Assembly: GCA_015057585.1 (NCBI GenBank)
Contig: SVEF01000013.1
Location: 27,054 to 91,053 of the forward strand
DNA length: 64,000 bases
Origin: Lachnospiraceae bacterium
GTDB taxonomy: Bacteria; Bacillota; Clostridia; Lachnospirales; Lachnospiraceae
Direction of reading: 5' to 3'
A program made the translations under genes and the position numbers. Positions 5,868-64,000 of the stretch are shown here, one piece after another. The notes under the pieces were generated by a model. The model did not search any database and was not told the origin of the DNA. It saw only the letters and a list, made by a program, of their open reading frames with translations. The stretch's first letter is position 1, and every line of letters starts with the position of its first letter.

Positions 5868-5988
5868 TGTTGCAACCCTCTCAATCTTAATATTGTATAA
5901 AAGATTATAGAGGTTTGGGAAAAAAGTGTCAATCCGAAAGGGAAAGATTATTCTACAGTGAAGAAAAACTTGCAAGAGGGAAACTGCA

Positions 5989-6939
5989 ATGCTATACTAT
6001 AATGAAGTATGGGAGAAGGAGGAAACAATAGAGAATATGAAAAAAATAGGAAAAGTAATCGGCTGTTTTTTGCCGACAATTGCGGCGTTTGCTACGCAGG
6101 TGTTGGCCGCTTCCGTGATTTCCACAATTTATGTAGTCATTCTTACCTTTTGGGGAGTGAATCAGGGAATTACAGATGACACGGAATTATATGATGCAAT
6201 GATGCAAAAATTGGCGGAGGGCAACTTTCTTTTAATTGTCACGGCAATTGCGACGTTTTATACGTTGATTATCGGATTTTTCTGGTATCGGGGACTTCGG
6301 CCGAAGACAGACTTTAAGTTGAAAGAAGTCATCAATGCAAAATTGCTTGCTGCCATGTTTTTGCTGGGAGTATCGTTGCAACTTTTGATTTCCATGTGCT
6401 TAAATGCGGTGTTCCCGCTTTTGCCGAATGCAACGACAACGGAATATTCGGAACTGATAGAAAGTCTCATCGGAGGAAACATCTGGCTGTCTTTACTTGT
6501 TACGGTGGTGTTGGCACCACTTGCAGAGGAACTTTTGTTCCGGGGAGTGACACTGAAAAAAGCGCAGAAGTTTATGCCGTTTATGGCGGCCAATCTTTTG
6601 CAGGCACTTTTGTTTGGAATTTATCACGGAAATCTGATTCAGGGAACATATGCGTTTGTTCTTGGTCTGATTCTTGGTTTTACAGCGGAATATTTCCATT
6701 CCATCTGGGCATCGGTTCTGTTGCATGCGTTTGTCAACGGTTCGGCGGAATTGCTCGGTCTCTTGCCGGAGAGCATGACTTCGACTCTTGCCGGGGTAAT
6801 TGCCCTGTCGGTTGTTGGTGTTATACTCTTGTTTGTAGCGGCAAAACTTTATCCGGGAGCCCGCCGCGTGCCGGAAACTGTATGTCCGGAACCTAAAGAG
6901 ACTGACGCGGAGTTTACGGAAAATTCATTTGACGAATAA
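5989..6939 (+). CDS. CPBP-family (CAAX-type) intramembrane metalloprotease
   Basis: Motifs EELLFRG, FGIYHGN and HAFVN within a polytopic membrane protein. An alternative start at 6037 (MKKIGK, AGGAGG upstream) is possible. Confidence 0.7.
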   Translation: MLYYNEVWEKEETIENMKKIGKVIGCFLPTIAAFATQVLAASVISTIYVVILTFWGVNQGITDDTELYDAMMQKLAEGNFLLIVTAIATFYTLIIGFFWYRGLRPKTDFKLKEVINAKLLAAMFLLGVSLQLLISMCLNAVFPLLPNATTTEYSELIESLIGGNIWLSLLVTVVLAPLAEELLFRGVTLKKAQKFMPFMAANLLQALLFGIYHGNLIQGTYAFVLGLILGFTAEYFHSIWASVLLHAFVNGSAELLGLLPESMTSTLAGVIALSVVGVILLFVAAKLYPGARRVPETVCPEPKETDAEFTENSFDE

Positions 6940-51107: not shown

Positions 51108-52030
51108 TGAAAAGAATGGAAGTAAAAGCAGTGCAAAACAACAGAATCGGATGGCTGGATGCATGGAAAGGGTTTGCAACACTTTTGGTGGTGCTCGGAC
51201 ACATTGCGGATGGATATCTGGATGCAGGGATGTTTCCCGGGTATACGGGAGTCTTACAGACAGGCTATGATATTATTTACTCGTTCCATATGCCGTTGTT
51301 TTTTGTCTTAAGCGGATATGCCTTTTACGTTGCTTATGCAAAAAACAGAGAAGTAAAGAAACGGAGCATGTGGCTGCAGATAGGAAATATTGCCGTGGTT
51401 TATATTCTTTTCAGTGTATTGCAATGGTGCTTTAAGATGGTATTTGCCGGACAGGTGAACACGACATACACATGGAAACATTTATGGATGATTCCGGTAA
51501 GGACCATGGCTCCGTACTGGTATCTGTATGTTTTGGTATTGCTGTATATGGTTACATGGTTTATAGAGCGGGTAAAACAGCCGGAATGGCTGAAAGTGTT
51601 TTTTTTTCTCGGTTTATATTTTTTAAGTGATTTGTTGCCGGATAGTATATTATTTGAAATAAAGAGAACTTTATATTATAGTTTCTTCTTTTATTTTGGA
51701 ATTTATCTTGCAAAAGCAGTGGCACCGGTTTTGGCAGAGAAACTGGAACCGCTCATAAAACATTACCGGAAAATACCGAAACCGGGCGTGCTTCGGTGGA
51801 TTGGCACTTACAGCCTGGAGATTTATGTCACTCATTGTTTTATTACTGCGGCAAACCGGAGGATTTTACCGGCAATCGGTATTACAAACTTCTATTGTAA
51901 TATAGTAACTAATTTTATTATGGCGGTTCTTTTGCCGGTAGCGGCAGCCTGTATATTGAAACATTTACGGTTGCATTCGTGGATTTTCCGACCGGTAACG
52001 TCATTAACAAAACATACCAGTGTAAGGTGA
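51107..52030 (+). CDS. Acyltransferase family 3 membrane protein (OatA-like O-acyltransferase)
   Basis: N-terminal GWLDAWKGFATLLVVLGH motif and about 9 TM helices. Confidence 0.65.
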   Translation: MKRMEVKAVQNNRIGWLDAWKGFATLLVVLGHIADGYLDAGMFPGYTGVLQTGYDIIYSFHMPLFFVLSGYAFYVAYAKNREVKKRSMWLQIGNIAVVYILFSVLQWCFKMVFAGQVNTTYTWKHLWMIPVRTMAPYWYLYVLVLLYMVTWFIERVKQPEWLKVFFFLGLYFLSDLLPDSILFEIKRTLYYSFFFYFGIYLAKAVAPVLAEKLEPLIKHYRKIPKPGVLRWIGTYSLEIYVTHCFITAANRRILPAIGITNFYCNIVTNFIMAVLLPVAAACILKHLRLHSWIFRPVTSLTKHTSVR

Positions 52031-52093
52031 GCAAAACTGCAAATACTACTAGCGTAACATCAAAAACAAATTTTATTTTTGGAGGTAAGAGTT

Positions 52094-52258
52094 ATGTCTA
52101 GAAGTAGAAACAGAGTCGAAGTTCCTGAAGCAAAGAGCGCTATGGATCAGTTCAAGATGGAAGTTGCATCTGAACTCGGTGTGCCTTTAACAAACGGTTA
52201 CAATGGTAACCTTACAAGTGCACAGAACGGTTCTGTCGGCGGCGAGATGTACCGTTAG
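52094..52258 (+). CDS. Small acid-soluble spore protein, alpha/beta type (54 aa; absent from the ORF track)
   Basis: MSRSRNRVEVPEAKSAMDQFKMEVASELGVPLTNGYNGNLTSAQNGSVGGEMYR carries the conserved SASP alpha/beta core (EIASELGV ... TSRQNGSVGGEM). The GGAGGTAAG RBS sits 3 nt upstream. Confidence 0.85.
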   Translation: MSRSRNRVEVPEAKSAMDQFKMEVASELGVPLTNGYNGNLTSAQNGSVGGEMYR

Positions 52259-52364
52259 ATTTAAAAGCCTTTATTTATGCGGTTTGTAGCAGTTTTGTTT
52301 TATGTTTTTACACCAAATTTACACCAATTTTTTAAAAGCGTAAAAGAGTATTGCAACTTCCTAA

Positions 52365-52396
52365 AAGCCTATAATTTTTATAGGCTTATATTTTTT
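52365..52396 (+). terminator. Terminator hairpin at the left edge of the AT-rich island
   Basis: AAGCCTATAA-ttt-TTATAGGCTT followed by ATATTTTTT, immediately preceding motif copy 1. Confidence 0.55.
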
Positions 52397-52397
52397 A

Positions 52398-52434
52398 CTC
52401 ATAAACTTAAACACACAATTATCTAATATATAAG
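52398..52434 (+). repeat. Island motif copy 1 (CTCATAAACTTAAACACACAATTATCTAATATATAAG)
   Basis: Member of a 9-copy family with consensus CAYAnrAMTTAAACAnnnnnnnnATCTAATAnrTAGr. Confidence 0.8.
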
Positions 52435-52471
52435 TCAATGTAGTGTATTTTCATATATGGAAGGTTTTTAC

Positions 52472-53029
52472 ATGAATCGCGCATCTCAATTAAAAAAATT
52501 ACTTCAAGCAAAAGAATCTCTAATCCTTTCTAAAAAATCAGATAACCCGTCCTACAGTAGTAAAGATAAATATCATGCAACTTTAAATAATTTTTTACAT
52601 CAAGAAATTCCCTTTATCCGAGATATTATTGACATTATGAACGTTGCACCAAATAATGGTGACGACTTTAGGAATACTCCATATCAGAGAACGCCTATTT
52701 CAGTCATAAACGAAGCTGGTAGCTTTTTTGTAGGATACCTTGGAAAAGGACATCGGATTGATGAGAAATTTGGATTTGCAGTGGGGTTTGATTTTGAAAC
52801 CTCAAAACCTATCGTTAAGAATTTCATTCGAGATAATCGTTGCAGTTATAAAACCTGTCCTCTCGAAGAGTCTTCTAAAACACTCCAAAAAGATTTGGAA
52901 GACTTTATAGAAATGTTTCAAACTTTTAAAGTCGATTTTTATGCCTGTTATGAAAACTTAATGTTAGCTCTTTCTGATGAAATCGATTTGCTTAAAAATG
53001 AATGTACCCCACCCGTAATGAATGTGTAG
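52472..53029 (+). CDS. Hypothetical protein (island cassette 1)
   Basis: AT-rich ORF. ATG at 52472 with GGAAGG 7 nt upstream; the track ORF begins at 52457. Confidence 0.45.
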   Translation: MNRASQLKKLLQAKESLILSKKSDNPSYSSKDKYHATLNNFLHQEIPFIRDIIDIMNVAPNNGDDFRNTPYQRTPISVINEAGSFFVGYLGKGHRIDEKFGFAVGFDFETSKPIVKNFIRDNRCSYKTCPLEESSKTLQKDLEDFIEMFQTFKVDFYACYENLMLALSDEIDLLKNECTPPVMNV

Positions 53030-53214
53030 CCTTGCCGAATTGTTGAAATACCTGTCGATATAAAATTGTTTACATTTTTCCTTTTGAGTGATACTCTCTA
53101 TATAAGGAAAAAGGAGGCTAATAAACAACAATACCCAGTCGAAAAAATCCCCTTTTGTAGGGGACAGACTCCTAAAGATGAATAACAAAAATGATTATGA
53201 ATTAGGAGGTTATT

Positions 53215-53430
53215 ATGGCTAGAGGTAAAAGAAATCTTCCTTTAGAAACACAGCTAGAACAAATTACTCAAAACATTGCAGCTATGGAGGAAAATTTAGT
53301 AGAATTAAAGAAAGCTAAAAATGAAATTGAAGAACAAATCAGAATGAATCAGTTGGCTGAATTAAATGATTTAATTTCTGAAAAAGGATTGAGTTTTGAA
53401 CAAGTGAAAGAGTTATTAAATAAGGAGTAG
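53215..53430 (+). CDS. Small coiled-coil protein (71 aa)
   Basis: AGGAGG RBS. Heptad-rich (LEQITQNIAAMEENLVELKKAKNEIEEQI). Terminator at 53425-53452. Confidence 0.45.
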   Translation: MARGKRNLPLETQLEQITQNIAAMEENLVELKKAKNEIEEQIRMNQLAELNDLISEKGLSFEQVKELLNKE

Positions 53431-53457
53431 TCCCAAGTGACTACTCTTTTTGTTTTA

Positions 53458-53495
53458 CTCACAGACTTAAACAAAATTCTATCTAATAGATAGAG
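53458..53495 (+). repeat. Island motif copy 2
   Basis: CTCACAGACTTAAACAAAATTCTATCTAATAGATAGAG, directly after the terminator. Confidence 0.8.
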
Positions 53496-53518
53496 ACATA
53501 AAATGCAACTCTGGAATA

Positions 53519-53548
53519 TTAGACAATAAGGTAATTTTATTGTATAAT
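53519..53548 (+). promoter_or_regulatory. Sigma-A-type promoter (TTAGAC, 18 nt spacer, extended -10 TGtATAAT) for the HipA-like gene
   Basis: ttagacaataaggtaattttattgtataat, about 25 nt downstream of motif copy 2. Confidence 0.5.
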
Positions 53549-53594
53549 TGAGTTGTAATCCATTTGAAAACATATATCAACAAGGAGAATGTTT

Positions 53595-54800
53595 ATGAAT
53601 GTAAAAAATTTAACACTCATGATGAAAGATACCCCAGTTTTATCCGTAAATTTAGACGAAGGGGAATATATTGTTCTGAATGAAAACTTGCTTCCTTTTG
53701 ATATGAAAGGCCGATTACGCAAACAACCAGAATTAACCGGGAATGTAAGTTATGACGCAAAACAATTAGCAATTTCCGCTATCAAAAATTATGAACAGTT
53801 ACTTGCTTTTTTATCGCATAGAGTATTACCAATTAGTAGAGAAAACGCAAAAAAAATTTATCAGTTATTTGGGGTAGAACAATTACAGGATGAAGTTTCA
53901 AAAGCTAAAATAGCAATCTTGTGCAGAGCCGTGTCTTTGCAAGATAATTACTGGGTGAAATTAGAAGATGAAAAAATAACTTGGAACGACGTTAATCTTA
54001 GAACAAACAGCCTCAGCGAAATTGTTACTCAAGTCTCCTTGCACGGAAGTTCATTATCCCTATCCGGTATGGTTCATACTCCAGAACTTACTGGACAAGG
54101 AGCTTATGCTAAAGCTTGGATAAGAGAAGAGGATGGATTATATCTACACAAAAGAGGGGCGAATGGTTCTTGGGAATCGAAAATTGAAGTTATGGTTTCA
54201 AATTTATTAGATTTTTGTAATGTCCCACATTTGAAATACGAGTCTTCTTCTTCTGTAGATATACAAACTCAAGAGTCCGTTTATACCTGTAAATGTAAAT
54301 GTATGACTACAGAAGATATTTCCATCCTTTCCGGAATGGATTTTACTTCTTGGTGTAATGTTAGAGGTGTAGACCCTTATAAAGAAGCTTTAAAAATTGA
54401 CCCGGAAATGATATATAAAATGTGGATAGTTGACTATTTGATTTCAAATCGAGATAGACATGGATTAAATTGGGGCTTTTTTTATGATTGTAATACTATG
54501 GAGATTTTAGGATGCCACCCTCTCTACGACCACAATAATGCTTTTGATAATGCCTTGATGTATGATAAAGACGCAACTTATTTATACGACCAAAGGATGA
54601 CTATGAGAGAAGCTGCAAAGCGAGCTATGGAACACGTTGATTTTCACTTTACGAAAGAAATCACCAGAGACGATTTTCTTACCGAAAGACAATATAAATC
54701 TTTTATGGACCGAACCCAAGAGCTTGGTATAAAAATTAAATCATCAATGTCAGAGGCCGAATCAGAAGGAATTGTTCCATCGACATTAACGTTTTCGTAA
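53595..54800 (+). CDS. HipA-like Ser/Thr kinase domain protein
   Basis: C-terminal WIVDYLISNRDRHGLNWGFFYD matches the HipA catalytic loop (D-x-H-x-x-N). ATG at 53595 with AAGGAGA 7 nt upstream. Confidence 0.5.
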   Translation: MNVKNLTLMMKDTPVLSVNLDEGEYIVLNENLLPFDMKGRLRKQPELTGNVSYDAKQLAISAIKNYEQLLAFLSHRVLPISRENAKKIYQLFGVEQLQDEVSKAKIAILCRAVSLQDNYWVKLEDEKITWNDVNLRTNSLSEIVTQVSLHGSSLSLSGMVHTPELTGQGAYAKAWIREEDGLYLHKRGANGSWESKIEVMVSNLLDFCNVPHLKYESSSSVDIQTQESVYTCKCKCMTTEDISILSGMDFTSWCNVRGVDPYKEALKIDPEMIYKMWIVDYLISNRDRHGLNWGFFYDCNTMEILGCHPLYDHNNAFDNALMYDKDATYLYDQRMTMREAAKRAMEHVDFHFTKEITRDDFLTERQYKSFMDRTQELGIKIKSSMSEAESEGIVPSTLTFS

Positions 54801-54820
54801 TAATTTAAGAGGTGTTTATA

Positions 54821-55291
54821 ATGATAGCAGGATTTCGAAATGAATATTATTTTTTAAGTAATTTCTATATTTGCAATATCAATTATAACGGTAAAACTTA
54901 TCAAAGTGCTGAGGCTGCATTTCAAGCTCAAAAGTCATTGGATGAAAATATTCAGTGGCAATTTACCGGATTGTCTCCAAGAGATGCCAGAACCCAAGGA
55001 AAAAGAGTTCCACTCAGACCGGATTGGGAAGAGGTGAAAGAAGACATTATGAAAGAAATTCTTATCATCAAATTCTCCAAGCCGGAATTGAAAGAAAAAT
55101 TACTTGAAACCGGAGATGAGTTTTTAGAAGAAACAAATGGATGGCATGATAACCATTGGGGGAATTGTAACTGTGAACGATGCCGGAATATTCCGGGTAA
55201 AAACATGCTTGGTAATTTATTGATGGATGTTCGTAAGAATTTTCAAGAGGAAATATTCAGGAATGAGAACCCTCCATATATGCAATGTTAA
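54821..55291 (+). CDS. NADAR (YbiA/DUF1768) family protein
   Basis: FLSNFY...YQSAEAAFQAQK...W...HWG pattern. ATG at 54821 with an AAGAGGTG RBS. Confidence 0.6.
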   Translation: MIAGFRNEYYFLSNFYICNINYNGKTYQSAEAAFQAQKSLDENIQWQFTGLSPRDARTQGKRVPLRPDWEEVKEDIMKEILIIKFSKPELKEKLLETGDEFLEETNGWHDNHWGNCNCERCRNIPGKNMLGNLLMDVRKNFQEEIFRNENPPYMQC

Positions 55292-55334
55292 TAAATATTT
55301 TTTTGTAATCATTTTATTTAAAATATTTCTTAAT

Positions 55335-55375
55335 ACACATGAACTTAAACAGAAGGCCATCTAATAAGTAGAAAC
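55335..55375 (+). repeat. Island motif copy 3
   Basis: ACACATGAACTTAAACAGAAGGCCATCTAATAAGTAGAAAC. Confidence 0.8.
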
Positions 55376-55458
55376 TGATATTATTTAAAGAAATGAGCTA
55401 TTACCTCATGTTAAAAGAAATTATGTTTGGCAACTGCACCTAAAGGAGAATATGTTTT

Positions 55459-55878
55459 ATGAAAAGTTCGCCTGTTATTCTTGACAATATGGTCTATTAC
55501 AATGGAGCAGAACAATATAAAAACGAAAAATGGGTATTCTTTTCAAACTATCCCCACAGTCATAGTGTTGAAACCGACATTACAATTATACATTCCGGTT
55601 TGATTTGTAGAGTCAATCCCACAACTACTGACCGATTTGGAAAGACTTTACCGGATAACTTTGCGGTAGAACTTCCTGCCGACCTTGGATTGTATGAACA
55701 ATCAGATGCTGTCAACAAAAAATTCGATTTGTGTACTGAACTCAGAGAAGAGTATGAAAAACGATTTTACGAACAAGGTATTGTCCCTGAAGGGTATTTT
55801 AGTTGGGAAAGACCTTGTTATCTTGGATGTGAAAAAGAATATGGTTTAAAAAAGCCGGAAAAAACCAACAAAGCGTAA
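55459..55878 (+). CDS. Hypothetical protein (139 aa)
   Basis: AAAGGAGAA RBS 8 nt upstream. No recognisable domain. Confidence 0.4.
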   Translation: MKSSPVILDNMVYYNGAEQYKNEKWVFFSNYPHSHSVETDITIIHSGLICRVNPTTTDRFGKTLPDNFAVELPADLGLYEQSDAVNKKFDLCTELREEYEKRFYEQGIVPEGYFSWERPCYLGCEKEYGLKKPEKTNKA

Positions 55879-55901
55879 TCACAAATGCAGGAGTTTGTCT
55901 T

Positions 55902-57326
55902 ATGAATAAACACGATTTGGTCTATGAAAAAATGCGAGGAGCATACATTAACCTAATGAACTATCACTCTTATAGTGTTCAAGAATTATATCTAACTTTA
56001 GAAAAAATTTTTGACGAATGTTATAAACAAGGTCTTGTGAAAGAAGGCTACGAGTTTATTTGCGATGTAGGGTGCAATGTAGCGTTACGATTTGTGTTTT
56101 ATAAGGATATTACCGAACTTTATTCGACAAATCTTAAACAAAAAGACGAACCCGAGGGCTGTCTTGTATCGAGGGATATGCCTTTACGCTATGCGGCAAA
56201 TAAAGAAACTTCTACACTTCTTGGGTACGAAAGAGCTCTTAAAGATATGGGGTTACATATAGCAAAAACGGCCGAACGGTCATTTTTTGTAGCATTAAAC
56301 AAATTAAAACCCGGAGTTGTTGTTGCTTTTACGGAAGGCAAAATGTATGTTTGCCGTGAAAATAAAGACTTAAAAATAACACTAGACCGTGTTTTTGACG
56401 GGGACATTAAAAATATCAACCCATCTGCATTCGTTAAAACAGAAACCATTGAATTGGATTTAACGGACTCTATTAGCGTTCAGCGATTTTACAATCAAAA
56501 TGCCAAAAATCTCACATGGTCTTGTGAAGTAGAGTACGCTGTTCTTAGTGACTGTATCAAAGAACTGGAAGGTTTGAAACGAGGAATTTCTCGATTCCAA
56601 TCAAAAGCTTTTCAAGTTGGACCGGTATCGTTCGTCGGGAAAAAATCTGTTTGGTCTAATCATGTAAAATGGTATGACAATACCGGTGCTCAAATTACAG
56701 ATGAACAACTTTCTTACCTAATCGGATTGCTTCATACACAACCAATTACAACAAAATATATCAGAAAAGAGCCGACATTCGAGAAGATTGCTTCTGATGA
56801 AGAATTTCGATTAAAAATCGAACGTTTACTAGACGACAAACAATATGACCTTGCATATCAAGAAATGTTAAAATATTCAAAAACACATACAAACGATTTA
56901 ATCATAAAAACAGATGGCTTTTTAAGAAATAATAAGAACGAATATATTGCCGGGTCTATTGTTTTTAGAGATGGACAAGCATTTCAACTATCTTATGAAG
57001 ATAACGATTTATCTAAAGATGTTGTAAAAACGTCTGAATTAAATAAATCGGATTTTATCGCACTTTGTCAATGTAAATATACCGAAACTTATGAACGGGT
57101 TTTTGCTAAAGCTGCAGAAGAAATTGAAAAAGAATATCATTTAAAATTAGAAGATATGACGGCAACGCAAAAACGAATTGTTAAGCAACAAGTAGAAAAA
57201 GAAATGGATAAAACCTCTGGCATTATATTAAAAAAAGAAAACATAATGTCAGGAACGACTGATGCTTCCGACATTATAAACGAAATGTCAGAAGACAACT
57301 CCATCAATATTTTGTTACAACGTTGA
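55902..57326 (+). CDS. Hypothetical protein (474 aa)
   Basis: Long AT-rich ORF with a GCAGGAG RBS. No recognisable domain. Confidence 0.4.
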   Translation: MNKHDLVYEKMRGAYINLMNYHSYSVQELYLTLEKIFDECYKQGLVKEGYEFICDVGCNVALRFVFYKDITELYSTNLKQKDEPEGCLVSRDMPLRYAANKETSTLLGYERALKDMGLHIAKTAERSFFVALNKLKPGVVVAFTEGKMYVCRENKDLKITLDRVFDGDIKNINPSAFVKTETIELDLTDSISVQRFYNQNAKNLTWSCEVEYAVLSDCIKELEGLKRGISRFQSKAFQVGPVSFVGKKSVWSNHVKWYDNTGAQITDEQLSYLIGLLHTQPITTKYIRKEPTFEKIASDEEFRLKIERLLDDKQYDLAYQEMLKYSKTHTNDLIIKTDGFLRNNKNEYIAGSIVFRDGQAFQLSYEDNDLSKDVVKTSELNKSDFIALCQCKYTETYERVFAKAAEEIEKEYHLKLEDMTATQKRIVKQQVEKEMDKTSGIILKKENIMSGTTDASDIINEMSEDNSINILLQR

Positions 57327-57344
57327 TAGAAAGGATATTTTTTA

Positions 57345-57872
57345 ATGACAGCTTCTTTTTATATTTCTTTTATTTTAGTCGCACTTGTTATTGCTACTTT
57401 ATTTGCAATTTATAGCGGCTATAAAACATCAGTAATAAAAAATAGAAACAACTATATATACATTACTTCTCCACTTATTGAACTATTCGGCCCTTTTGAT
57501 AAGGATATCTGTAATTATTGCTTGTATTTTGTAGATGCTGAATATATTCAAATTGAACACGATGATGAATATTTTTATAAGTCTGTAGAAAAAAATAGAG
57601 AATCACTAACTCAGTGTATTTTAGGATATCAGCAGATTTATGAACGATTAAAATCTGGAGAAACGATGGAACACTTATTTTATGACCCGGATTTATCTCA
57701 AATTGCTCACTCTTGTTTTGACGTCGGACCGAGAATCTTTGGAACCGTTATTAACAACAAAATTGTATTAAATAATGGCCGACATCGTTATGTTATTGCC
57801 AAAGAACTGGGAATAAAATTACCTGTATATATAGCGTCCGAGACGGTAATTAATATTGATTTAAACAAATAA
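57345..57872 (+). CDS. Membrane-anchored protein with a ParB/Srx-like nuclease-fold domain
   Basis: N-terminal TM helix. C-terminal LNNGRHRYVIAKELGIKLPVYI resembles the ParB N-terminal DGxHR motif. Confidence 0.4.
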   Translation: MTASFYISFILVALVIATLFAIYSGYKTSVIKNRNNYIYITSPLIELFGPFDKDICNYCLYFVDAEYIQIEHDDEYFYKSVEKNRESLTQCILGYQQIYERLKSGETMEHLFYDPDLSQIAHSCFDVGPRIFGTVINNKIVLNNGRHRYVIAKELGIKLPVYIASETVINIDLNK

Positions 57873-57936
57873 ACAACCACATAAAAACAAATGACAAAGA
57901 GGGTATTCATAGATACTCTCTTTTTTTTTGTTTGTT

Positions 57937-57974
57937 TCACACAGAATTAAACATATTTTTAACTAATATATAAA
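57937..57974 (+). repeat. Island motif copy 4
   Basis: CACACAGAATTAAACATATTTTTAACTAATATATAAAT, directly after the terminator at 57897-57929. Confidence 0.75.
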
Positions 57975-58035
57975 TAAAGACTATACAAAAGAACGAAGGA
58001 AGGGGAGATTACTCCCCTATTCCCCTCAATAAAAC

Positions 58036-58239
58036 TCAAAATAACGACAATATCGTTAAGCCTGTACTGACAGCGGCTCCGGACAACATGACATTACAGA
58101 ATCGTTTGGCTCTGGAAATTAGTTCGTTTCGTTGGACGAAAATTCCCACCAGAAACACAAATAAACTCAACATAGCCAGAAAAACAAATACTCCGGCAGC
58201 AAACAAAAATATAAATGTAGTTGACTTCATCCTTATCAC
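58036..58239 (-). CDS. Small hydrophobic protein (two TM helices) on the opposite strand
   Basis: AAAGGAGGTGATAAGG RBS on the minus strand. Hairpin AGGGGAGATTACTCCCCT at 57998-58015 acts as its terminator. Confidence 0.45.
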   Translation of the reverse strand: MIRMKSTTFIFLFAAGVFVFLAMLSLFVFLVGIFVQRNELISRAKRFCNVMLSGAAVSTGLTILSLF

Positions 58240-58334
58240 CTCCTTTAAAATAATTATCTGTTCAGAAGCTAGGTCTAAGTCAAGCTGATTTTTTTTATTT
58301 TTTTAGTTGTATTTTTAATAAATAAAATTCTATT

Positions 58335-58372
58335 ACACATAGAATTAAACAGATTTTTAACCAATATGTAGG
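58335..58372 (+). repeat. Island motif copy 5 (diverged 3' half)
   Basis: ACACATAGAATTAAACAGATTTTTAACCAATATGTAGG. Confidence 0.7.
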
Positions 58373-58490
58373 TAAACACAACTTGTTGTCAATCTTTACA
58401 AATTTTAATAATTTTATATTTTTCGACTTATAATACGTAGGAATATAGTCTCGTTTTGTCTGACATTTTAATAAAAGTATGTGTTTTTTA

Positions 58491-58519
58491 TTGACATATT
58501 GAATAATATGATTTATAAT
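58491..58519 (+). promoter_or_regulatory. Consensus sigma-A promoter TTGACA, 17 nt spacer, TATAAT
   Basis: ttgacatattgaataatatgatttataat, which lies inside the track ORF 58481.. and implies the true start is downstream. Confidence 0.55.
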
Positions 58520-58585
58520 GAAACCTGCACTATTATGGATTTTTGTGTCCTATTGGTGACAACACACAAATGGAGAAAATTTAAG

Positions 58586-59080
58586 ATGAATTCAAAAGAT
58601 GATTTTGAGCGATATTCAAGCCTGTATTACTATCAATTATACAAAAGTGCTTATGCTCACAAAAAATTTATATACGGCGCTATCACAACCATAGTAATTC
58701 TTGGAGCACTCGTTCCTTTTGCGGCCCAATTCATTTTGCCGTTTTTCTTTCCTGAATGTAAAATTGCCGGGGCAGAAATTTGGAACCAATATGTAAGTAT
58801 TGTGTTGGGAGTTGTTGCTACTTTAATGAGTATCATATCATTAAAGCTTAGTTTTGACAATATGACCCAATCTTTTGAATCTGAACGAAGAACACGAGAG
58901 TTATTCGCAAAATTAGAAGGACACTTAATTGATATTGAACATAATCAAAACAACTTATTAACAAAAACAGATATTATGTCTCTTTTGAAAAATGGATATC
59001 ATTTTGAAGAAGAGAATGATATAATTTCCCAATGGAACTCACCAAAAGCAACAAGTAAGAGTGAAAGCAATGATATTTAG
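58586..59080 (+). CDS. Hypothetical membrane protein (164 aa, 2 TM helices)
   Basis: ATG at 58586 with a TGGAGAAAAT RBS, downstream of the promoter. Confidence 0.45.
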   Translation: MNSKDDFERYSSLYYYQLYKSAYAHKKFIYGAITTIVILGALVPFAAQFILPFFFPECKIAGAEIWNQYVSIVLGVVATLMSIISLKLSFDNMTQSFESERRTRELFAKLEGHLIDIEHNQNNLLTKTDIMSLLKNGYHFEEENDIISQWNSPKATSKSESNDI

Positions 59081-59094
59081 GAGGTTATGATTTT

Positions 59095-59601
59095 ATGTGT
59101 GTGCAAAATGTAAATGCAACGATTTCATTATTTTCAGACGTAAGAAATGCAGAAGTTCAAGGAGCTCAAGAATTCATAAGACCATTTGATATCATTGTTT
59201 CAAAAACAATCAATGACAACAAATATATTGGAGGTTTTTATATAGTAATAGATATTGTATTATTATCTACCACAAATGAAGGAAAAAAAGAAGACAATGT
59301 TGTTTATAACAAACAAAAAATAGATGTTATTGTTAGATTGACAAAATCTAGTAAAGACTTTCAAAAAAGATTATCTTCAGATATAGATGAATTTACAATA
59401 GATACCTCTAATGAAAACATTATAAAAAGAAATGCATGTGTTGAATATGTTGGATATAAGAAAATTAAAAAAATTGATATTGATGGGATTAAATTAAGTC
59501 CAGAAGCAGGAACAGGAGATTATATTTTCAAAGTATTAGTAAAACGACCATGTGATAACGAGTACCAAGTACAATCTGTTTATAATTTACGAATAGAATA
59601 A
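59095..59601 (+). CDS. Hypothetical protein (168 aa)
   Basis: AGGAGG RBS. Terminator hairpin at 59626-59657. Confidence 0.4.
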   Translation: MCVQNVNATISLFSDVRNAEVQGAQEFIRPFDIIVSKTINDNKYIGGFYIVIDIVLLSTTNEGKKEDNVVYNKQKIDVIVRLTKSSKDFQKRLSSDIDEFTIDTSNENIIKRNACVEYVGYKKIKKIDIDGIKLSPEAGTGDYIFKVLVKRPCDNEYQVQSVYNLRIE

Positions 59602-59921
59602 TAATGAAAAAAAAGAGAGTCAGGGAAATAAATTCCCCGACTCTTTTTATATTATAAATATTGTTTTAATCAATCCACTTAAGGGTTCCATAATGGCTAT
59701 AACTATTGTTGTTGATGTCATTTAAATAAGACGCCTTTATTATAGGCGTCTTTTTTATTCTACCAAAAAAAATGTAAAAACTATCTAAAAGTGTCGTATG
59801 GTGTCGTGTTTTATAATTTGTATTTTTTGCCAGATTCCTTTAACATATAATAGTTACGTTTGGTTATATATGTTGAGGAACTTTTATATTGCTCTTTTTT
59901 TTGTTGTCCTAATAACACCAA

Positions 59922-59961
59922 ACACATGAACTTAAACATAATATTATTTAATATATAGAAA
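59922..59961 (+). repeat. Island motif copy 6 (5' half conserved, 3' half diverged)
   Basis: ACACATGAACTTAAACATAATATTATTTAATATATAGAAA. Sits in tandem with copy 7, 30 nt downstream. Confidence 0.65.
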
Positions 59962-59991
59962 TGAAAGCCAAAATTCTTTCTATTTTTAATT

Positions 59992-60031
59992 ACACATAAA
60001 CTTAAACAGAGAGTTATCTAATAAGTAGAAC
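59992..60031 (+). repeat. Island motif copy 7
   Basis: ACACATAAACTTAAACAGAGAGTTATCTAATAAGTAGAAC, followed by an extended -10 TGGTATACT at 60071-60079. Confidence 0.8.
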
Positions 60032-60107
60032 AAATAATTAAAACGACCAGTATACGAAAACGACAAAATATGGTATACTGAATAAAGATTTGAAAGGAGA
60101 ATACCCT

Positions 60108-61631
60108 ATGAAGAATTTTATTAAAGCACATACAAAATTATGGATTGGTTGTATCGTGGGTGGTATTGCAGTTATAGGAATTATGCTTTTCGTGGTTCCT
60201 CAATTTGTGGAGCAGCCTGATGTAACTCCTACGCCAACTATAGCTCCAACTAATACACAGGCTCCAACAGTAACTATAGAGCCTACAACCGAACCGACTT
60301 CTGAACCAACTGTAAATCCAACAAACACTATAACACCTACAGAAATTCCTGTGGTAACTGTAGAGCCAACTGTAGAACCAACTAAGGCTCCTACCAACAC
60401 ACCTATAGTAACCCCAACATTCACTCCGGTTCCTACACCAACGTTGAGTCCTACTCCGAGTCCTACACCTTTTATTCCTCCTACACCAGTACCTACAAAC
60501 ACACCGACTCCTACACCGAGTCCTACACCTACTAATACTCCTACTCCTACTGTTACTAATACTCCTACACCAAGTCCTACTAATACTCCTACACCAACAC
60601 CAACAGTAGTACCAAGCACATTACGTGCAAATGTACAGATGGGCGATAATGTATATTTTAAATACTATGATGATGGAACATTAGTAGTTACCGGTACGGG
60701 TAGTACATGGGATTTTGCAAACAACGATGATATGTTAAATGTTTTTAGCAAAAACTCTGGTATTGATAAAACTTCTCTTGTGAAAAACAATTACTTAATG
60801 AAAGAAACAACCGTGATTATCATCAATGAGGGAGTTACTCGAATTGGCGATTGTGTTTTTATTACAAACTATCAAAATACAACAGACGTTTATTTACCTA
60901 GTTCTCTCAAATCTGTTGGAAAGTATGGTTTCTACAGAGTTGGTTACATTTATAAAAATACAACTTGGCATAATCTCAATCTTGATAAATTAACATTTAT
61001 GGACACTTCTTTCGGTAAAACCAATGCACTTGATGGTTATACAAAGGAAGAAATTGAAAAAGTTCAGGTAACACCAACACCTACACCAAGTCCAACGGTA
61101 ACACCTACTCCAAACCCGGCAAAACCAAGAGAAATCTTTGTTGTAAAGGGTAGTAGCGAAATAGTAATGACCTATATTGACAACGGAACTTTAGTAGTTA
61201 CCGGTACGGGGACTTTAAATGAATGTTTGAATTTCACTCGTTATTGTCAGCGAAATAATATTCCTCTTACATCTGAAGTGTTAAAGCATTTAGTAATTGA
61301 AGAAGGATTTACTGATTTATATGAAATGTGTCTTGATTATACACATTATAGTGGTCTCCCGGTACTTTTCGAAACAATTACTCTACCAAAGTCTTTAACC
61401 AAAGTGTACAATAGAAAAGACCATTCTTCTTATGGAGCTGGTGGTCAATATTGTGGTTGCATTAAAGTTGGTGGAAAGTTAATTGCTTATGATAAAAATG
61501 GCAATAAATTTCAATTTACTGTAACAAAACTGCCATCAGAAAAACATTATGGAGCTATTGTTCATGAAATTTTCAACTGGCTTAATGATGGAACTTATAG
61601 TCAATACGGTACGCTTAAGTGGATTGATTAA
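60108..61631 (+). CDS. Membrane-anchored surface protein: N-terminal TM helix, ~150-aa Pro/Thr-rich linker and two BspA-like leucine-rich-repeat-type domains
   Basis: PTPTPSPTPTNTPTPT linkers. Domains have the pattern TVIIINEGVTRIGDCVFITNYQNTTDVYLPSSLKSVGKYGF. ATG at 60108 with an AAAGGAGAA RBS. Confidence 0.5.
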   Translation: MKNFIKAHTKLWIGCIVGGIAVIGIMLFVVPQFVEQPDVTPTPTIAPTNTQAPTVTIEPTTEPTSEPTVNPTNTITPTEIPVVTVEPTVEPTKAPTNTPIVTPTFTPVPTPTLSPTPSPTPFIPPTPVPTNTPTPTPSPTPTNTPTPTVTNTPTPSPTNTPTPTPTVVPSTLRANVQMGDNVYFKYYDDGTLVVTGTGSTWDFANNDDMLNVFSKNSGIDKTSLVKNNYLMKETTVIIINEGVTRIGDCVFITNYQNTTDVYLPSSLKSVGKYGFYRVGYIYKNTTWHNLNLDKLTFMDTSFGKTNALDGYTKEEIEKVQVTPTPTPSPTVTPTPNPAKPREIFVVKGSSEIVMTYIDNGTLVVTGTGTLNECLNFTRYCQRNNIPLTSEVLKHLVIEEGFTDLYEMCLDYTHYSGLPVLFETITLPKSLTKVYNRKDHSSYGAGGQYCGCIKVGGKLIAYDKNGNKFQFTVTKLPSEKHYGAIVHEIFNWLNDGTYSQYGTLKWID

Positions 61632-61701
61632 CAACCAAATAAACTTTCCTTTTATAGAGGGAATAGAGAAGGTAGGATTTTTATATCCTACCTTTTTTTC
61701 T

Positions 61702-61740
61702 TCACATAAAATTAAACAGACAGTCATCTAATATATAGGG
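61702..61740 (+). repeat. Island motif copy 8
   Basis: TCACATAAAATTAAACAGACAGTCATCTAATATATAGGG, directly after the terminator at 61670-61700. The downstream reading frame is open from the last base of the motif. Confidence 0.8.
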
Positions 61741-63666
61741 CTTACTTTTGCCTCAGCTCCGGCTACCGGAACTTTAACTCAATCTGTAACAGTTCAACTG
61801 ACTATCGTAAGTCAAGAATATAAAGTTTCTTTAGATGCAAATAACGGAAAAAATAATGCAAATTATGACTCAGACGGCCCGTTTTCTGTGTTTTATAAAG
61901 AAACCACCAACAATAATATTTCTCAGTACACTCCATCAAGAACAGGATATATCTTTTCCGGATGGATGAATTCAATAAATGACAATGACGGTGTGTATGT
62001 TTATGACAAAAATGGCATCTTTGTTAATAATACAGGCTATTGGACAAATGACATATGGACTGCATTAAGCGGAGCCATGCTTTATGCACAATGGTCTCCT
62101 AGAACTTATCTTGTCACGTTCGATGCAAATGGTGGTATTTGTGCGGAACAAACCAAAAGTGTAACTTTTGAAGCAACTTATGGTACACTTCCTACACCAA
62201 CAAGAACAGGATATGTTTTTTCAGGATGGTATACTGCAAAAACAGGTGGAACTCTTGTTACAAGTTCTACAACTGTTTCAACAGCTTCAGACCACACTTT
62301 GTATGCACAGTGGACCCCATCTCCATATACGGTTTCTTTAGACCAGCAGGGTGGTTGGAATGGAACTATTAGCGTTATTGCGGATTACGAACAACCTATG
62401 CCAACTCCAATTACGTTGCCGGAAAAACAATTTACTGTTACTTTTGATGGAACCGGAGGTACTCCGGAGGTTCCTTCGTTACAAGCTGTTTGTACATTTT
62501 TAGGATATTTTGCATCAAGAGGTGGCGTCGGAACTCAGTATTACACAAGTACAGGAGCTTCTGCCCATATTTGGGATGTACCTCAAAATTCAACAATATA
62601 TGCAAACTGGCAAACCTCAGAAATTGTTTTACCAAATGCATCTCGAGATGGATATTCGTTTTCCGGATGGTTTTCTGATAGAGTTAATACCGACTTTATT
62701 GGAAATGCCGGAGAATATTATCAGGTAAATGATAATACAACTCTTTATGCATCGTGGACCGCAAACACATATAATGTCTTTTTTGACGCAAATACAGGAT
62801 ATTGTTATTTAGAAAAAAAAGAAGTTTTATATGACGACCGTTATGGCGAACTTCCTTTAGCAACCGTTAGAAAAGACGGAACATTCTTCGACGTTGATGG
62901 AGAATGGGTAAGACCTCAAGATTCAATCCTTTATGCTCACTGGTCGGCTAATACTTACATCGTTGGCGGTATGGACCTTGACGACACGCTTACTTCCAGA
63001 GATGAAATCAATGCAAAGATGGTTATTGTGCTTGATGAAGCAACAGACCAGTGGGGTATTAAAGTAACTCGTGTAGAAATCAAAAACATTATGCCTCCTC
63101 GTGATATTCAGGAAGCGATGGACAAGCAGATGAAAGCAGAACGCGAAAAGAGACAAACCTTACTGGAAGCTCAGGCACACAGAGAAGCTTCTGTAACAAG
63201 AGCAGAAGGTGACAAACAAGCAGCAATTCTTAAAGCCGAAGCGGAAAGAGATGCGGCTATTGCAAGAGCTACCGGTGAAGCAGAAAGTATTAGACTCGTT
63301 TACGAAGCCGAAGCGAATGGTCTTAAGTTGCTCGCAGAAGCCGGTGTAAATGAAACGGTACTTGCTTTAAAGAAAGTAGAAGCCTTAAAAGAACTCGGTC
63401 ATGGACAGGCAACCAAGATTGTGGTTCCTACAGAAATTGCAAGTTTAGCAGCAGATATGACGATTAAGGGAGAGCTTCTTGACATTGCGGATAAAGCAAA
63501 CATCACTCCAGAAATTCCAATCGTACAAAATCAGGACGATTGTTGTGATGACGACAATCGCACCACAACAACAAAAGATTTAAAAGAACAACAGAAACAA
63601 AACTTCAAATCTATGTCAAAAGAAGAGCGAACAGAACTTTTGGATAAAGTACTACATCGTAAGTAA
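61732..63666 (+). pseudogene. Chimeric, 5'-truncated ORF: Listeria-Bacteroides (Flg_new-type) surface repeats without start codon or signal peptide, fused in frame at about 62950 to the C-terminal half of an SPFH/band-7 domain protein
   Basis: The frame is open from 61732 with no ATG/GTG/TTG until the GTG at 61888. Repeats show YxVxFDANGG...GYxFSGW...LYAxW. From GGMDLDDTLTSRDEINAKMVIVLDEATDQWGIKVTRVEIKNI...AEREKR the sequence is a stomatin/HflK-like SPFH C-terminus. GC rises at the junction. Confidence 0.5.
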
Positions 63667-63673
63667 TTGACAA

Positions 63674-63704
63674 AACCCCCTCTAACATGAGGGGGCTTTT
63701 TTTT
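63674..63704 (+). terminator. Rho-independent terminator
   Basis: CCCCCTC-taacat-GAGGGGG followed by CTTTTTTTT. Confidence 0.7.
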
Positions 63705-63705
63705 A

Positions 63706-63744
63706 CTCATAAAATTAAACAAATTTTTATCTAATAGATAGATA
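63706..63744 (+). repeat. Island motif copy 9
   Basis: CTCATAAAATTAAACAAATTTTTATCTAATAGATAGATA, about 40 nt upstream of the next ATG. Confidence 0.8.
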
Positions 63745-63784
63745 CCTAATTACAAGAAATTTCAAACAGTATAGGAAAAATAAT

Positions 63785-64000
63785 ATGGAAAAGTGCGGTG
63801 TTTTTTTAGCAAGAATGCAACCGGTTCATAATGCTCATCTACATATGGTACGAAGAGCTCTAAAAGAATGTGATAAAGTTTTAGTTGTCCTTACGGAATA
63901 CAAAACAAAGCTTAACGAACTCCATGATTTAATCAAAGAAAATCCCTTTCGTAGAGGATATGAAGCAAATGTAAATTATGGTAAAGGCTATTATAAGCTT
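63785..64000 (+). CDS. Nucleotidyltransferase of the NadM/NMN-adenylyltransferase-like cytidylyltransferase family, N-terminal part (continues beyond the window)
   Basis: GVFLARMQPVHNAHLHMVRRALKECDKVLVVL matches the G-R-F-Q-P-x-H-x-G-H (H/T)xGH motif region of the archaeal-type NMNAT/cytidylyltransferase fold. AGGAAAAA RBS. Confidence 0.45.
   Translation, partial: MEKCGVFLARMQPVHNAHLHMVRRALKECDKVLVVLTEYKTKLNELHDLIKENPFRRGYEANVNYGKGYYKL

Follow-up and report, generated by a model that had tools for sequence, protein, structure and literature searches.

A conserved 38-nucleotide (nt) motif, present in nine intergenic copies that all lie on the + strand, punctuates a low-GC, phage-related island at 52.4–63.7 kb of the 64,000-nt stretch of DNA analysed here (the window), which comes from a Lachnospiraceae bacterium (GenBank assembly GCA_015057585.1, contig SVEF01000013.1, positions 27,054 to 91,053). 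The motif has the consensus aCaCA-N5-TTAAACA-N7-A(t/a)CTAATA-nr-TA(g/a) and is a real, non-random and conserved signal. With moderate confidence, we consider that it is probably the promoter, or the promoter core, of a transcription system specific to the phage-related island, heading a series of autonomous cassettes, and the results support the view that it is not a host housekeeping promoter. An earlier annotation made from the sequence alone (the first-pass annotation) had described the array and proposed four roles for it (operator, mobile-element promoter, conserved 5' leader or recombination site), and did not place it in the phage-related low-GC island, which starts at ~52.26 kb.

The TTAAACA block, used as an anchor, begins at positions 52407, 53467, 55345, 57947, 58345, 59932, 60002, 61712 and 63715. 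A repeat search of the window recovered the same nine copies as a single family (D1), with no longer unit common to them. A degenerate pattern matched 9/9 copies and no other site in the window, and the core TTAAACA-N7-AWYYAATA-NR-TA, with one mismatch at most, gave nine matches as compared with 0.00 expected from 100 shuffles. When the window was scanned with a 50-nt weight matrix (about 41 bits), the nine copies scored 40–54 bits, every other site on both strands of the 64 kb scored below 12 bits, and the 52 kb of host DNA contained no copy. The anchor, repeat and matrix searches thus agree with the nine same-orientation copies originally listed. The pattern first written for them matches no copy, its 8-nt spacer being in fact 7 nt; a 5' block is indeed conserved, and is better described as aCaCA-N5 immediately before TTAAACA than as C-A-Y-A-n-r-A-M. 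The nine copies are the following.

52397–52434, + strand: motif copy 1 (ACTCATAAAC TTAAACA CACAATT ATCTAATA TATAA), followed by a start codon at 52472
53457–53494, + strand: motif copy 2, upstream of the HipA-like kinase gene
55335–55372, + strand: motif copy 3, at the head of a conserved 139-aa/474-aa gene pair (aa, amino acids)
57937–57974, + strand: motif copy 4, with no + strand gene downstream
58335–58372, + strand: motif copy 5, followed by a start codon at 58586
59922–59959, + strand: motif copy 6, with only a weak hairpin and T-run downstream (59956–59988)
59992–60029, + strand: motif copy 7, upstream of the LRR_5/BspA-like surface protein gene (60108–61631)
61702–61739, + strand: motif copy 8, the point at which haplotypes diverge (last common base 61738, ...ATCTAATATATAG)
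63705–63742, + strand: motif copy 9, upstream of a cytidylyltransferase-like (NMNAT-type) gene that starts at 63785

Neither dyad symmetry, nor a hairpin, nor inverted repeats were found in the motif, in line with its initial description as not palindromic. The region 51500–64000 gave no Rfam match (E<=1), and the copies have no common RNA fold, their minimum free energies ranging from 0 to −6 kcal/mol with a structure that differs copy by copy. Only 38–53 nt are common to the copies and the flanks are unique, which bears out the earlier statement that the flanks are not conserved and that the copies are not long repeats or miniature inverted-repeat transposable elements; together with the missing inverted repeats, this rules out both the latter and repeats of the repetitive extragenic palindromic type. 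Iterons, chi-like sites, nut/qut sites and transposon ends were excluded by spacing, orientation and the absence of inverted repeats.

Most copies stand directly behind a transcription terminator. A strong hairpin followed by a U-run abuts copies 1, 2, 4, 8 and 9 (−11 to −21 kcal/mol, z <= −3), a weak hairpin with a U-run abuts copy 7, and none was seen at copies 3, 5 and 6, so that the count of seven terminators among nine copies given at first has to be lowered to five strong ones and a weak sixth. The hairpins are unrelated to each other in sequence and belong to the upstream gene. The five strong terminators are listed below, and the same coupling of terminator and motif was also seen in three related contigs described further on (L009, L014 and L020).

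52365–52396, + strand: intrinsic terminator of the small acid-soluble spore protein (SASP) gene, a hairpin and T-run abutting copy 1
53422–53456, + strand: intrinsic terminator abutting copy 2
57896–57936, + strand: intrinsic terminator abutting copy 4
61671–61699, + strand: intrinsic terminator abutting copy 8 (−21 kcal/mol)
63676–63704, + strand: intrinsic terminator abutting copy 9

Seven copies have a same-strand start codon 38–214 nt downstream. Counted from the TAG that closes the motif, the start codon lies 38 nt away for copy 1, 101 nt for copy 2, 87 nt for copy 3, 214 nt for copy 5, 79 nt for copy 7 and 43 nt for copy 9. In five units (copy 1, copy 9, a UvrD gene, L014 5365 and L020 11090) this distance is only 17–43 nt, which leaves no room for a separate promoter; for copies 1 and 9 we likewise found neither a sigma-A-like promoter nor the space for one. 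Elsewhere such promoters do follow the motif: those claimed earlier downstream of copies 2 and 5 were confirmed as TAGACA-17-TATAAT (53520–53548) and TTGACA-17-TATAAT (58491–58519, between motif and start), respectively, and an extended −10 element, TGGTATACT, follows copy 7 (60071–60079). No sigma-70-type site overlaps the motif at any of the nine copies, and this result, taken with the absence of copies from the 52 kb of host DNA, upholds the earlier opinion that the motif is not just a housekeeping promoter. The motif is not used by all island units, since, in the region 53040–53430, a 71-aa coiled-coil gene (53215–53430) lacks it and has a sigma-A-like promoter of its own instead (TTTACA, 17 nt, TG-n-TACTCT).

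Two further features of the array concern copies that head no obvious gene. Copies 6 and 7 are spaced 70 nt (59922–60029) with a weak hairpin and T-run between them, an arrangement that looks like an empty cassette. Copy 4 aims antisense into a small minus-strand open reading frame (ORF) at 58036–58239, which encodes a very hydrophobic product of 64–67 aa and is equipped with a strong ribosome-binding site and with a terminator hairpin of its own on the minus strand; the layout of this ORF, antisense to a would-be copy 4 transcript, resembles that of a type I toxin-antitoxin pair.

The motif proved to be very rare. Neither the 596 Gb of species-representative genomes nor IMG/VR contained a match to its strict pattern, and a relaxed pattern that also fits L009 had one match in the same 596 Gb, in Bacillus sp. 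AFS001701, which we attribute to chance because it resembles coding sequence and has no adjacent terminator. Four IMG/VR matches to a relaxed left-half pattern were also put down to chance, as all of them scored below 8 bits on the full matrix. Two scans of metagenome contigs gave no match, but as even Joint Genome Institute (JGI) contigs known to bear the island were missed by them, this negative carries no information. The first-pass annotation had named, as the outcome that would speak against its reading, a motif distributed genome-wide like a general promoter; no convincing match pointing to this was found in the 596 Gb of genomes. Neither the island nor L020 had a match among phages and plasmids by megablast, the 474-aa ORFan had none among phages by tblastn, and the HipA-like kinase had only matches of 24–27% identity in phages.

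Among 5.8 billion proteins, the 474-aa ORFan, which NCBI lists as a protein of a Lachnospiraceae MAG, has one other homologue cluster only, with 39% identity. On the metagenomic contig that encodes this homologue (L009), a terminator is followed directly by ACACAATTTC-TTAAACA-GAAACCC-AGCTAATA-AG-TAGA, 62 nt ahead of the gene and with an extended −10 element (TGATATAAT) in between, while no extended similarity to the corresponding intergenic region of the window was seen outside the motif. The 139-aa/474-aa ORFan pair (55459–57326 in the window, 1177–2968 in L009) is conserved at about 39–41% identity with the gene order swapped, and the motif still heads the pair despite the swap. The closest homologue of the HipA-like kinase (73% identity) is found on two phage-like metagenomic contigs, L020 and L021, which carry many small same-strand ORFs, an NAD-dependent ligase, a dNMP kinase and AbiEii, and in which motif variants of the form ACACAnAAAC-TTAAACA-N7-AGCTAATA precede the kinase, the ligase and two other genes. 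Across 15 distinct instances of the motif, the invariant core aCaCA-N5-TTAAACA is followed at a fixed distance by A-CTAATA; blocks and spacing are conserved and the N7 spacer and the flanks are free, including in L009 and L020/L021. L020 also contains a duplicated leader of ~180 nt (4393–4576 and 5846–6025, 79% identical) ahead of a PI3_PI4-kinase-like and the HipA-like gene, both copies of which terminate in an extended −10 element (TGTTATAAT).

Exact-protein look-ups showed that the island is present in many assemblies of one sample series, in more than one form. In variant A (L001, L010 and L014) the sequence is the same as that of the window through 61738 and unrelated from 61739 on, where genes of 165, 191, 113 and 210 aa are found together with a 1096-aa Flg_new protein, a 523-aa ORFan and two GNAT acetyltransferases, followed by a minus-strand UvrD/DUF5710 helicase gene and more ORFans; GC content is 30–38% throughout, and the island extends for at least 30 kb in this form. 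Variant A has three additional motifs: one complete copy precedes the 1096-aa gene, another has lost 2 nt (L014 5365) and has the ribosome-binding site of the 113-aa gene right after its TAG, and a third, inverted, lies 34 nt ahead of the helicase gene on the minus strand. The last of these indicates that the orientation of the motif follows that of the gene, and the second that transcription can hardly start past TAG, given that the ribosome-binding site adjoins it.

The window itself represents variant B, in which a Flg_new coding region truncated at its 5' end is joined to copy 8. In JGI sample 3300023371, which derives from a goat-faecal enrichment consortium, unitigs of variant A (L015) and variant B (L005) have the same first base and 127 nt in common, a length taken to be the assembler k-mer length, and part directly after TATATAG. 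As both unitigs come from this sample, the two variants co-exist in one community. In a third form (L003) the Flg_new gene goes on past 62957, the position at which the window switches to an SPFH C-terminal part. All variant-B assemblies (L002 and L004–L008) break off inside the NMNAT-like gene, no more than ~16 nt from window base 64010, which suggests a further branch point or repeat just past the window.

No candidate for the factor that reads the motif was found in the visible parts of the island. Pfam searches, run at E<=5 for nine island/L001 ORFs and at E<=0.01 for other ORFs, detected no sigma-factor, RNA-polymerase or recombinase family in the 20 larger host ORFs scanned or in the island ORFs, and no sigma-factor or regulator match in the nine ORFs searched at the permissive threshold; PHROGs and PADLOC added no regulator. 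More distant contexts of the HipA-like gene (L022–L024 and L029–L033) are phage-like contigs of 25–37% GC that do not contain this motif; SmpB, Thg1, RlaP, a CCA-adding enzyme and UvrD are encoded on one or another of them, and several of these contigs encode sigma-70-family proteins. In L032 (70–1728), a UvrD gene with a Hint (intein-type) domain match has two small paralogous sigma-70-like genes (181 and 187 aa) as neighbours, and L030/L032 have a motif of their own, AAAATTTTAA(A/G)CATAT-nn-AAATAG, which contains TTAARCA and is placed ahead of several genes, one of them sigma-like. The two sigma-like proteins of L032 had no homologue in the island, L014 or L020 by tblastn. The relatives of the island helicase, 32–34% identical, are mainly from Bacillus, Listeria and Staphylococcus phages and from uncultured gut phages. 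An element-encoded sigma-like factor is plausible, because related contigs carry sigma-70-family genes, L030/L032 have their own motif and the helicase is phage-related.

We favour the promoter reading because the motif obeys a strand rule and stands at the head of its units behind a terminator, because some units are too short for another promoter, because conservation is block-wise with a free spacer, and because the motif is absent from host DNA and other genomes. According to the model that we propose, the blocks aCaCA, TTAAACA and AnCTAATA would be recognized by a factor other than host sigma-A, most likely an element-encoded sigma-like factor or activator and less likely an element RNA polymerase, and transcription would begin inside the motif or at its 3' end, near TAG. 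Each gene or short operon would then be an insulated, moron-like module bearing its own expression signals, as most units are closed by an intrinsic terminator immediately ahead of the following motif; with these terminators abutting the motif (five strong and one weak), upstream transcription would be cut off before it. The ordinary sigma-A promoter found in about half of the modules would permit expression under two regimes. As a weaker, secondary element of the model, the 38-nt conserved sequences might serve as short-homology joints for the loss, gain or swap of cassettes.

Several observations weigh against this reading. No sense gene follows copy 4 and no gene at all follows copy 6, and no sigma factor, RNA polymerase, regulator or recombinase was found in the ~40 kb of visible island. 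TTAAACA is only 11 nt from TAATAn and the blocks fit no sigma-70-family geometry cleanly; if TAG is the start, TTAAACA falls in the would-be spacer. The junction at copy 8 abuts a 5'-truncated gene, which is not explained by simple recombination between promoter copies alone, and the recombination role is based on this single junction.

The arrangement of the blocks may be read in more than one way. Transcription may start near TAG, with CTAATA as a −10-like element, or at the TA of an AACA-N6-TA element such as that of phage AR9, leaving a conserved leader. A layout resembling that of extracytoplasmic function (ECF) sigma factors, TTAAAC-N16-nRTA, appears disfavoured, since the start would fall inside the ribosome-binding site at L014 5365. 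The motif was compared by eye with known consensuses, including those in PMC7438776, and neither the consensuses of sigma-A, -B, D, E, F, G, H, K and sigma-54, nor those of ECF factors (Escherichia coli sigma-E and Bacillus subtilis sigma-W), the TcdR family, T7/SP6 and yeast mitochondria, explained all conserved blocks; the nearest partial fits were the ECF-like layout and an SP6-like TATAG-A ending.

The rival that survives best, although we judge it unlikely, is that the motif is not itself a promoter and acts as an operator through which an island-encoded master repressor or activator jointly controls the sigma-A promoters of the cassettes, or blocks read-through. It would account for the sigma-A-like or extended −10 elements that separate motif from gene in roughly half the units (copies 2, 5 and 7, L014 4087, L009 and L020 5811) and for the retention of both motif and sigma-A promoter ahead of the HipA-like gene, in the window as in L020. 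However, at 38 nt the motif is asymmetric and strictly gene-oriented, and its distance to the sigma-A promoters varies from ~6 to 200 nt, both of which weaken the operator role suggested in the first-pass annotation; moreover, five units behind a terminator, with no room for another promoter, would be left promoterless, and the visible island contains no helix-turn-helix (HTH) regulator (L021 has an Xre-type gene, with no link to the motif). Of the four roles suggested there, that of a mobile-element promoter fits best, because the orientation of the motif tracks the gene, the motif heads the operon with swapped order and several cassettes have no room for another promoter.

A broader proposal combines an undescribed element-encoded transcription system, with a block layout (aCaCA/TTAAACA/CTAATA/TAG) that fits no known promoter class of the sigma-70 family or of phage RNA polymerases, with the use of the same site as a precise joint for cassette exchange. 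The outcome would be an integron-like, self-expressing cassette array in the chromosome of a gut Firmicute; we hold this combination to be rather unlikely.

Equally doubtful in our view is a promoter of another geometry, in which the TTAAACA core lies ~10 nt upstream of the start, as in the late promoters of the AR9 non-virion RNA polymerase (nvRNAP). The AR9 enzyme requires uracil-containing DNA and split beta/beta' subunits for recognition, and in the visible parts, related contigs included, we saw no evidence of uracil-DNA or of split beta/beta' genes, and found sigma-70-family proteins instead. The nvRNAP late promoters of this Bacillus jumbo phage read AACA-N6-TA/G, the last base being the start (PMC5312081). 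Applied to the motif, the start would be at the A of ATCTAATA, and ATCTAATA-nr-TAG would form a common 5' leader involved, for example, in processing, stability or translation control, so that the conserved 5' leader of the first-pass annotation may describe the 3' half of the motif. AACA-N6-TA is present in 7/9 window copies and in the extra variant A copy, the other two window copies having CA; the ribosome-binding site in L030/L032 lies 27 nt past TTAAACA, which requires a start near that block, and the 2-nt-deleted copy at L014 5365 has a perfect left half. The element is low in information, though, and its recurrence could be coincidence; the aCaCA block 10 nt upstream has no AR9 counterpart, and the putative leader has no conserved fold.

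We consider it improbable that the motif is a site-specific recombination or insertion site, cut at its 3' edge (TATAG|) in an integron-like array of genes with their terminators. The motif has neither dyad symmetry nor a hairpin, no recombinase was found in the ~40 kb of visible island, and no adjacent tyrosine recombinase (intI) with attI and Pc turned up either in the window or along ~30 kb of the alternative haplotype. Its orientation tracks the gene even in the inverted helicase unit, it heads an operon despite differing internal gene order (L009), and many cassettes bear their own promoters, unlike integron cassettes. What speaks for such a site is that two haplotypes of one sample part exactly at the 3' edge of copy 8, that a 5'-truncated gene is joined directly at this edge, that the cassette between copies 6 and 7 is empty and that the array of unrelated ORFans is one-directional. 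The haplotype junction agrees with the recombination site suggested at first, but it is a single one, conservation ending at the +1 of a promoter would look identical, and recombination between promoter copies through short homology explains it equally well.

That the copies are non-functional relics, left by a single intergenic segment that was copied together with the cassettes and has still to decay, is very improbable: they are clustered in one island and copies 4 and 6 have no obvious downstream gene, but they are conserved in blocks, with the N7 spacer free to vary and flanks that do not align, the motif is retained in relatives with proteins of only 39–73% identity, and the strand and position rules hold throughout.

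Ordinary Lachnospiraceae chromosomal genes fill the 52 kb next to the island (1–52 kb), among them genes for isopropylmalate dehydrogenase, a GntR regulator, arabinofuranosidases, GH43 enzymes, ABC sugar-binding proteins, the sporulation protein YtfJ and Asp23. GC content falls from ~44% to ~32% at 52.2 kb; the host SASP gene ends at 52258 and the island begins just after it. Island genes are mainly ORFans, the exceptions being the HipA-like kinase, a NADAR protein, the LRR_5/BspA-like surface protein, a Flg_new/Band_7 chimera and the start of the NMNAT-type gene. Two regions are referred to here.

52260–64000, + strand: low-GC island (~32% as compared with ~44% GC), ORFan-rich and related to phage genes
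61741–63666, + strand: chimeric ORF, with 5'-truncated Flg_new repeats to 62957 and an SPFH/Band_7 C-terminal part in frame

The chimera is joined directly to copy 8 and has no Flg_new N-terminus or start codon, and its SPFH/Band_7 part corresponds to the C-terminal ~40% of that domain plus a tail; the first-pass annotation was correct that the reading frame is open up to copy 8 without a start codon, and the frame consists of Flg_new repeats. The NMNAT-like gene (63785) was considered as another truncated gene and dropped, given that its Pfam match covers residues 10–50 and the window merely ends there. The LRR_5/BspA-like protein contains Pro/Thr-rich linker repeats with a period of 6–18 nt (60200–60620 and 61077–61113), where GC skew dips to −0.52. 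The end codons of its gene (61595–61631) recur reversed at 59666–59702, forming a 37-nt inverted repeat (86%) that adjoins a minus-strand terminator (59644–59616), and this remnant looks like what is left of a paralogue that was deleted or inverted. The empty cassette between copies 6 and 7, the inverted 3' LRR remnant and the truncated or fused genes fit frequent cassette turnover.

If the motif is a promoter, it provides a search key for an uncharacterized phage-related element of Lachnospiraceae, bacteria that abound in gut and rumen and for which genetic tools are scarce, and likewise for the regulon of the sigma-like factor or polymerase that reads it. The 38-nt sequence could also serve as an orthogonal promoter part, and the haplotype junction at copy 8 is a concrete case for the study of accessory-gene turnover.

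Among the systems to which the array can be compared, integrons also present a one-directional array of unrelated single-gene cassettes with a recurring site, and one junction lies at the edge of that site here. In contrast, attC is an imperfect palindrome that folds as a single strand and is found beside intI, while the motif has no shared fold; integron cassettes are usually promoterless, whereas strong sigma-A-like promoters lie inside several units of the island. The inner part of the motif, AACA-N6-TA or CA, is like the AR9 nvRNAP promoter, and the motif as a whole is much longer, with an upstream aCaCA block and downstream CTAATA..TAG blocks.

SPO1 gp28 and gp33/34 and T4 MotA/AsiA define lineage-restricted classes of phage promoters that occur in many copies and are unlike the host −35/−10 elements. 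In T4 middle promoters an upstream box is placed 11–13 bp from a −10-like element, which is comparable to the 10–11 nt between TTAAACA and TAATAn in the motif. The helicase relatives in Bacillus, Listeria and Staphylococcus phages and the sigma-70-family proteins encoded by related contigs also recall such phage classes. The SPO1 and T4 consensus sequences are, however, unrelated to the motif, the copies described here lie in a bacterial chromosome, and their factor is putative.

The morons of temperate phages are, reportedly, promoter-gene-terminator units, in descriptions credited to Juhala et al. (in 2000) and to Hendrix et al. Morons, which occur singly, rely on ordinary host promoters whose sequences are unrelated. 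The island units resemble them as autonomous single-gene units with a promoter and an intrinsic terminator of their own and a composition unlike that of the surroundings, and differ from them in that the array has one specific 38-nt signal in common.

Promoter-early stem-loops (PeSLs) of the T4-type phages phi1 and RB49 consist of a promoter motif and a terminator stem-loop repeated ahead of ORFans; they are found in hyperplastic regions, and the differences between close relatives map to them, each cassette thus supplying a promoter and a terminator of its own (Arbiol et al. 2010, PMC2839356; Comeau et al. 2014, PMC4122927). Likewise, a terminator is coupled to a conserved motif in the array (five of nine copies strongly, a sixth weakly), the island is ORFan-rich, and variants A and B part at the 3' edge of copy 8, this being one junction only. 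The PeSL promoter conforms to the host sigma-70 consensus with a 16–18-nt spacer, while the motif lacks sigma-A geometry; the stem-loop is part of the conserved PeSL unit, while the hairpins of the island are unrelated and belong to the upstream gene; and PeSLs reside in the genomes of T4-type virions, as opposed to a Firmicute chromosomal island. The documented cases of a conserved promoter-terminator joint have so far come from T4-type phages that infect Gram-negative bacteria, and, if the promoter reading is true, joints that express and shuffle ORFans would extend to Firmicute elements, with a promoter outside the sigma-A consensus. By this analogy, the architecture of the island would match that of PeSL cassettes in function, and not in sequence class or setting.

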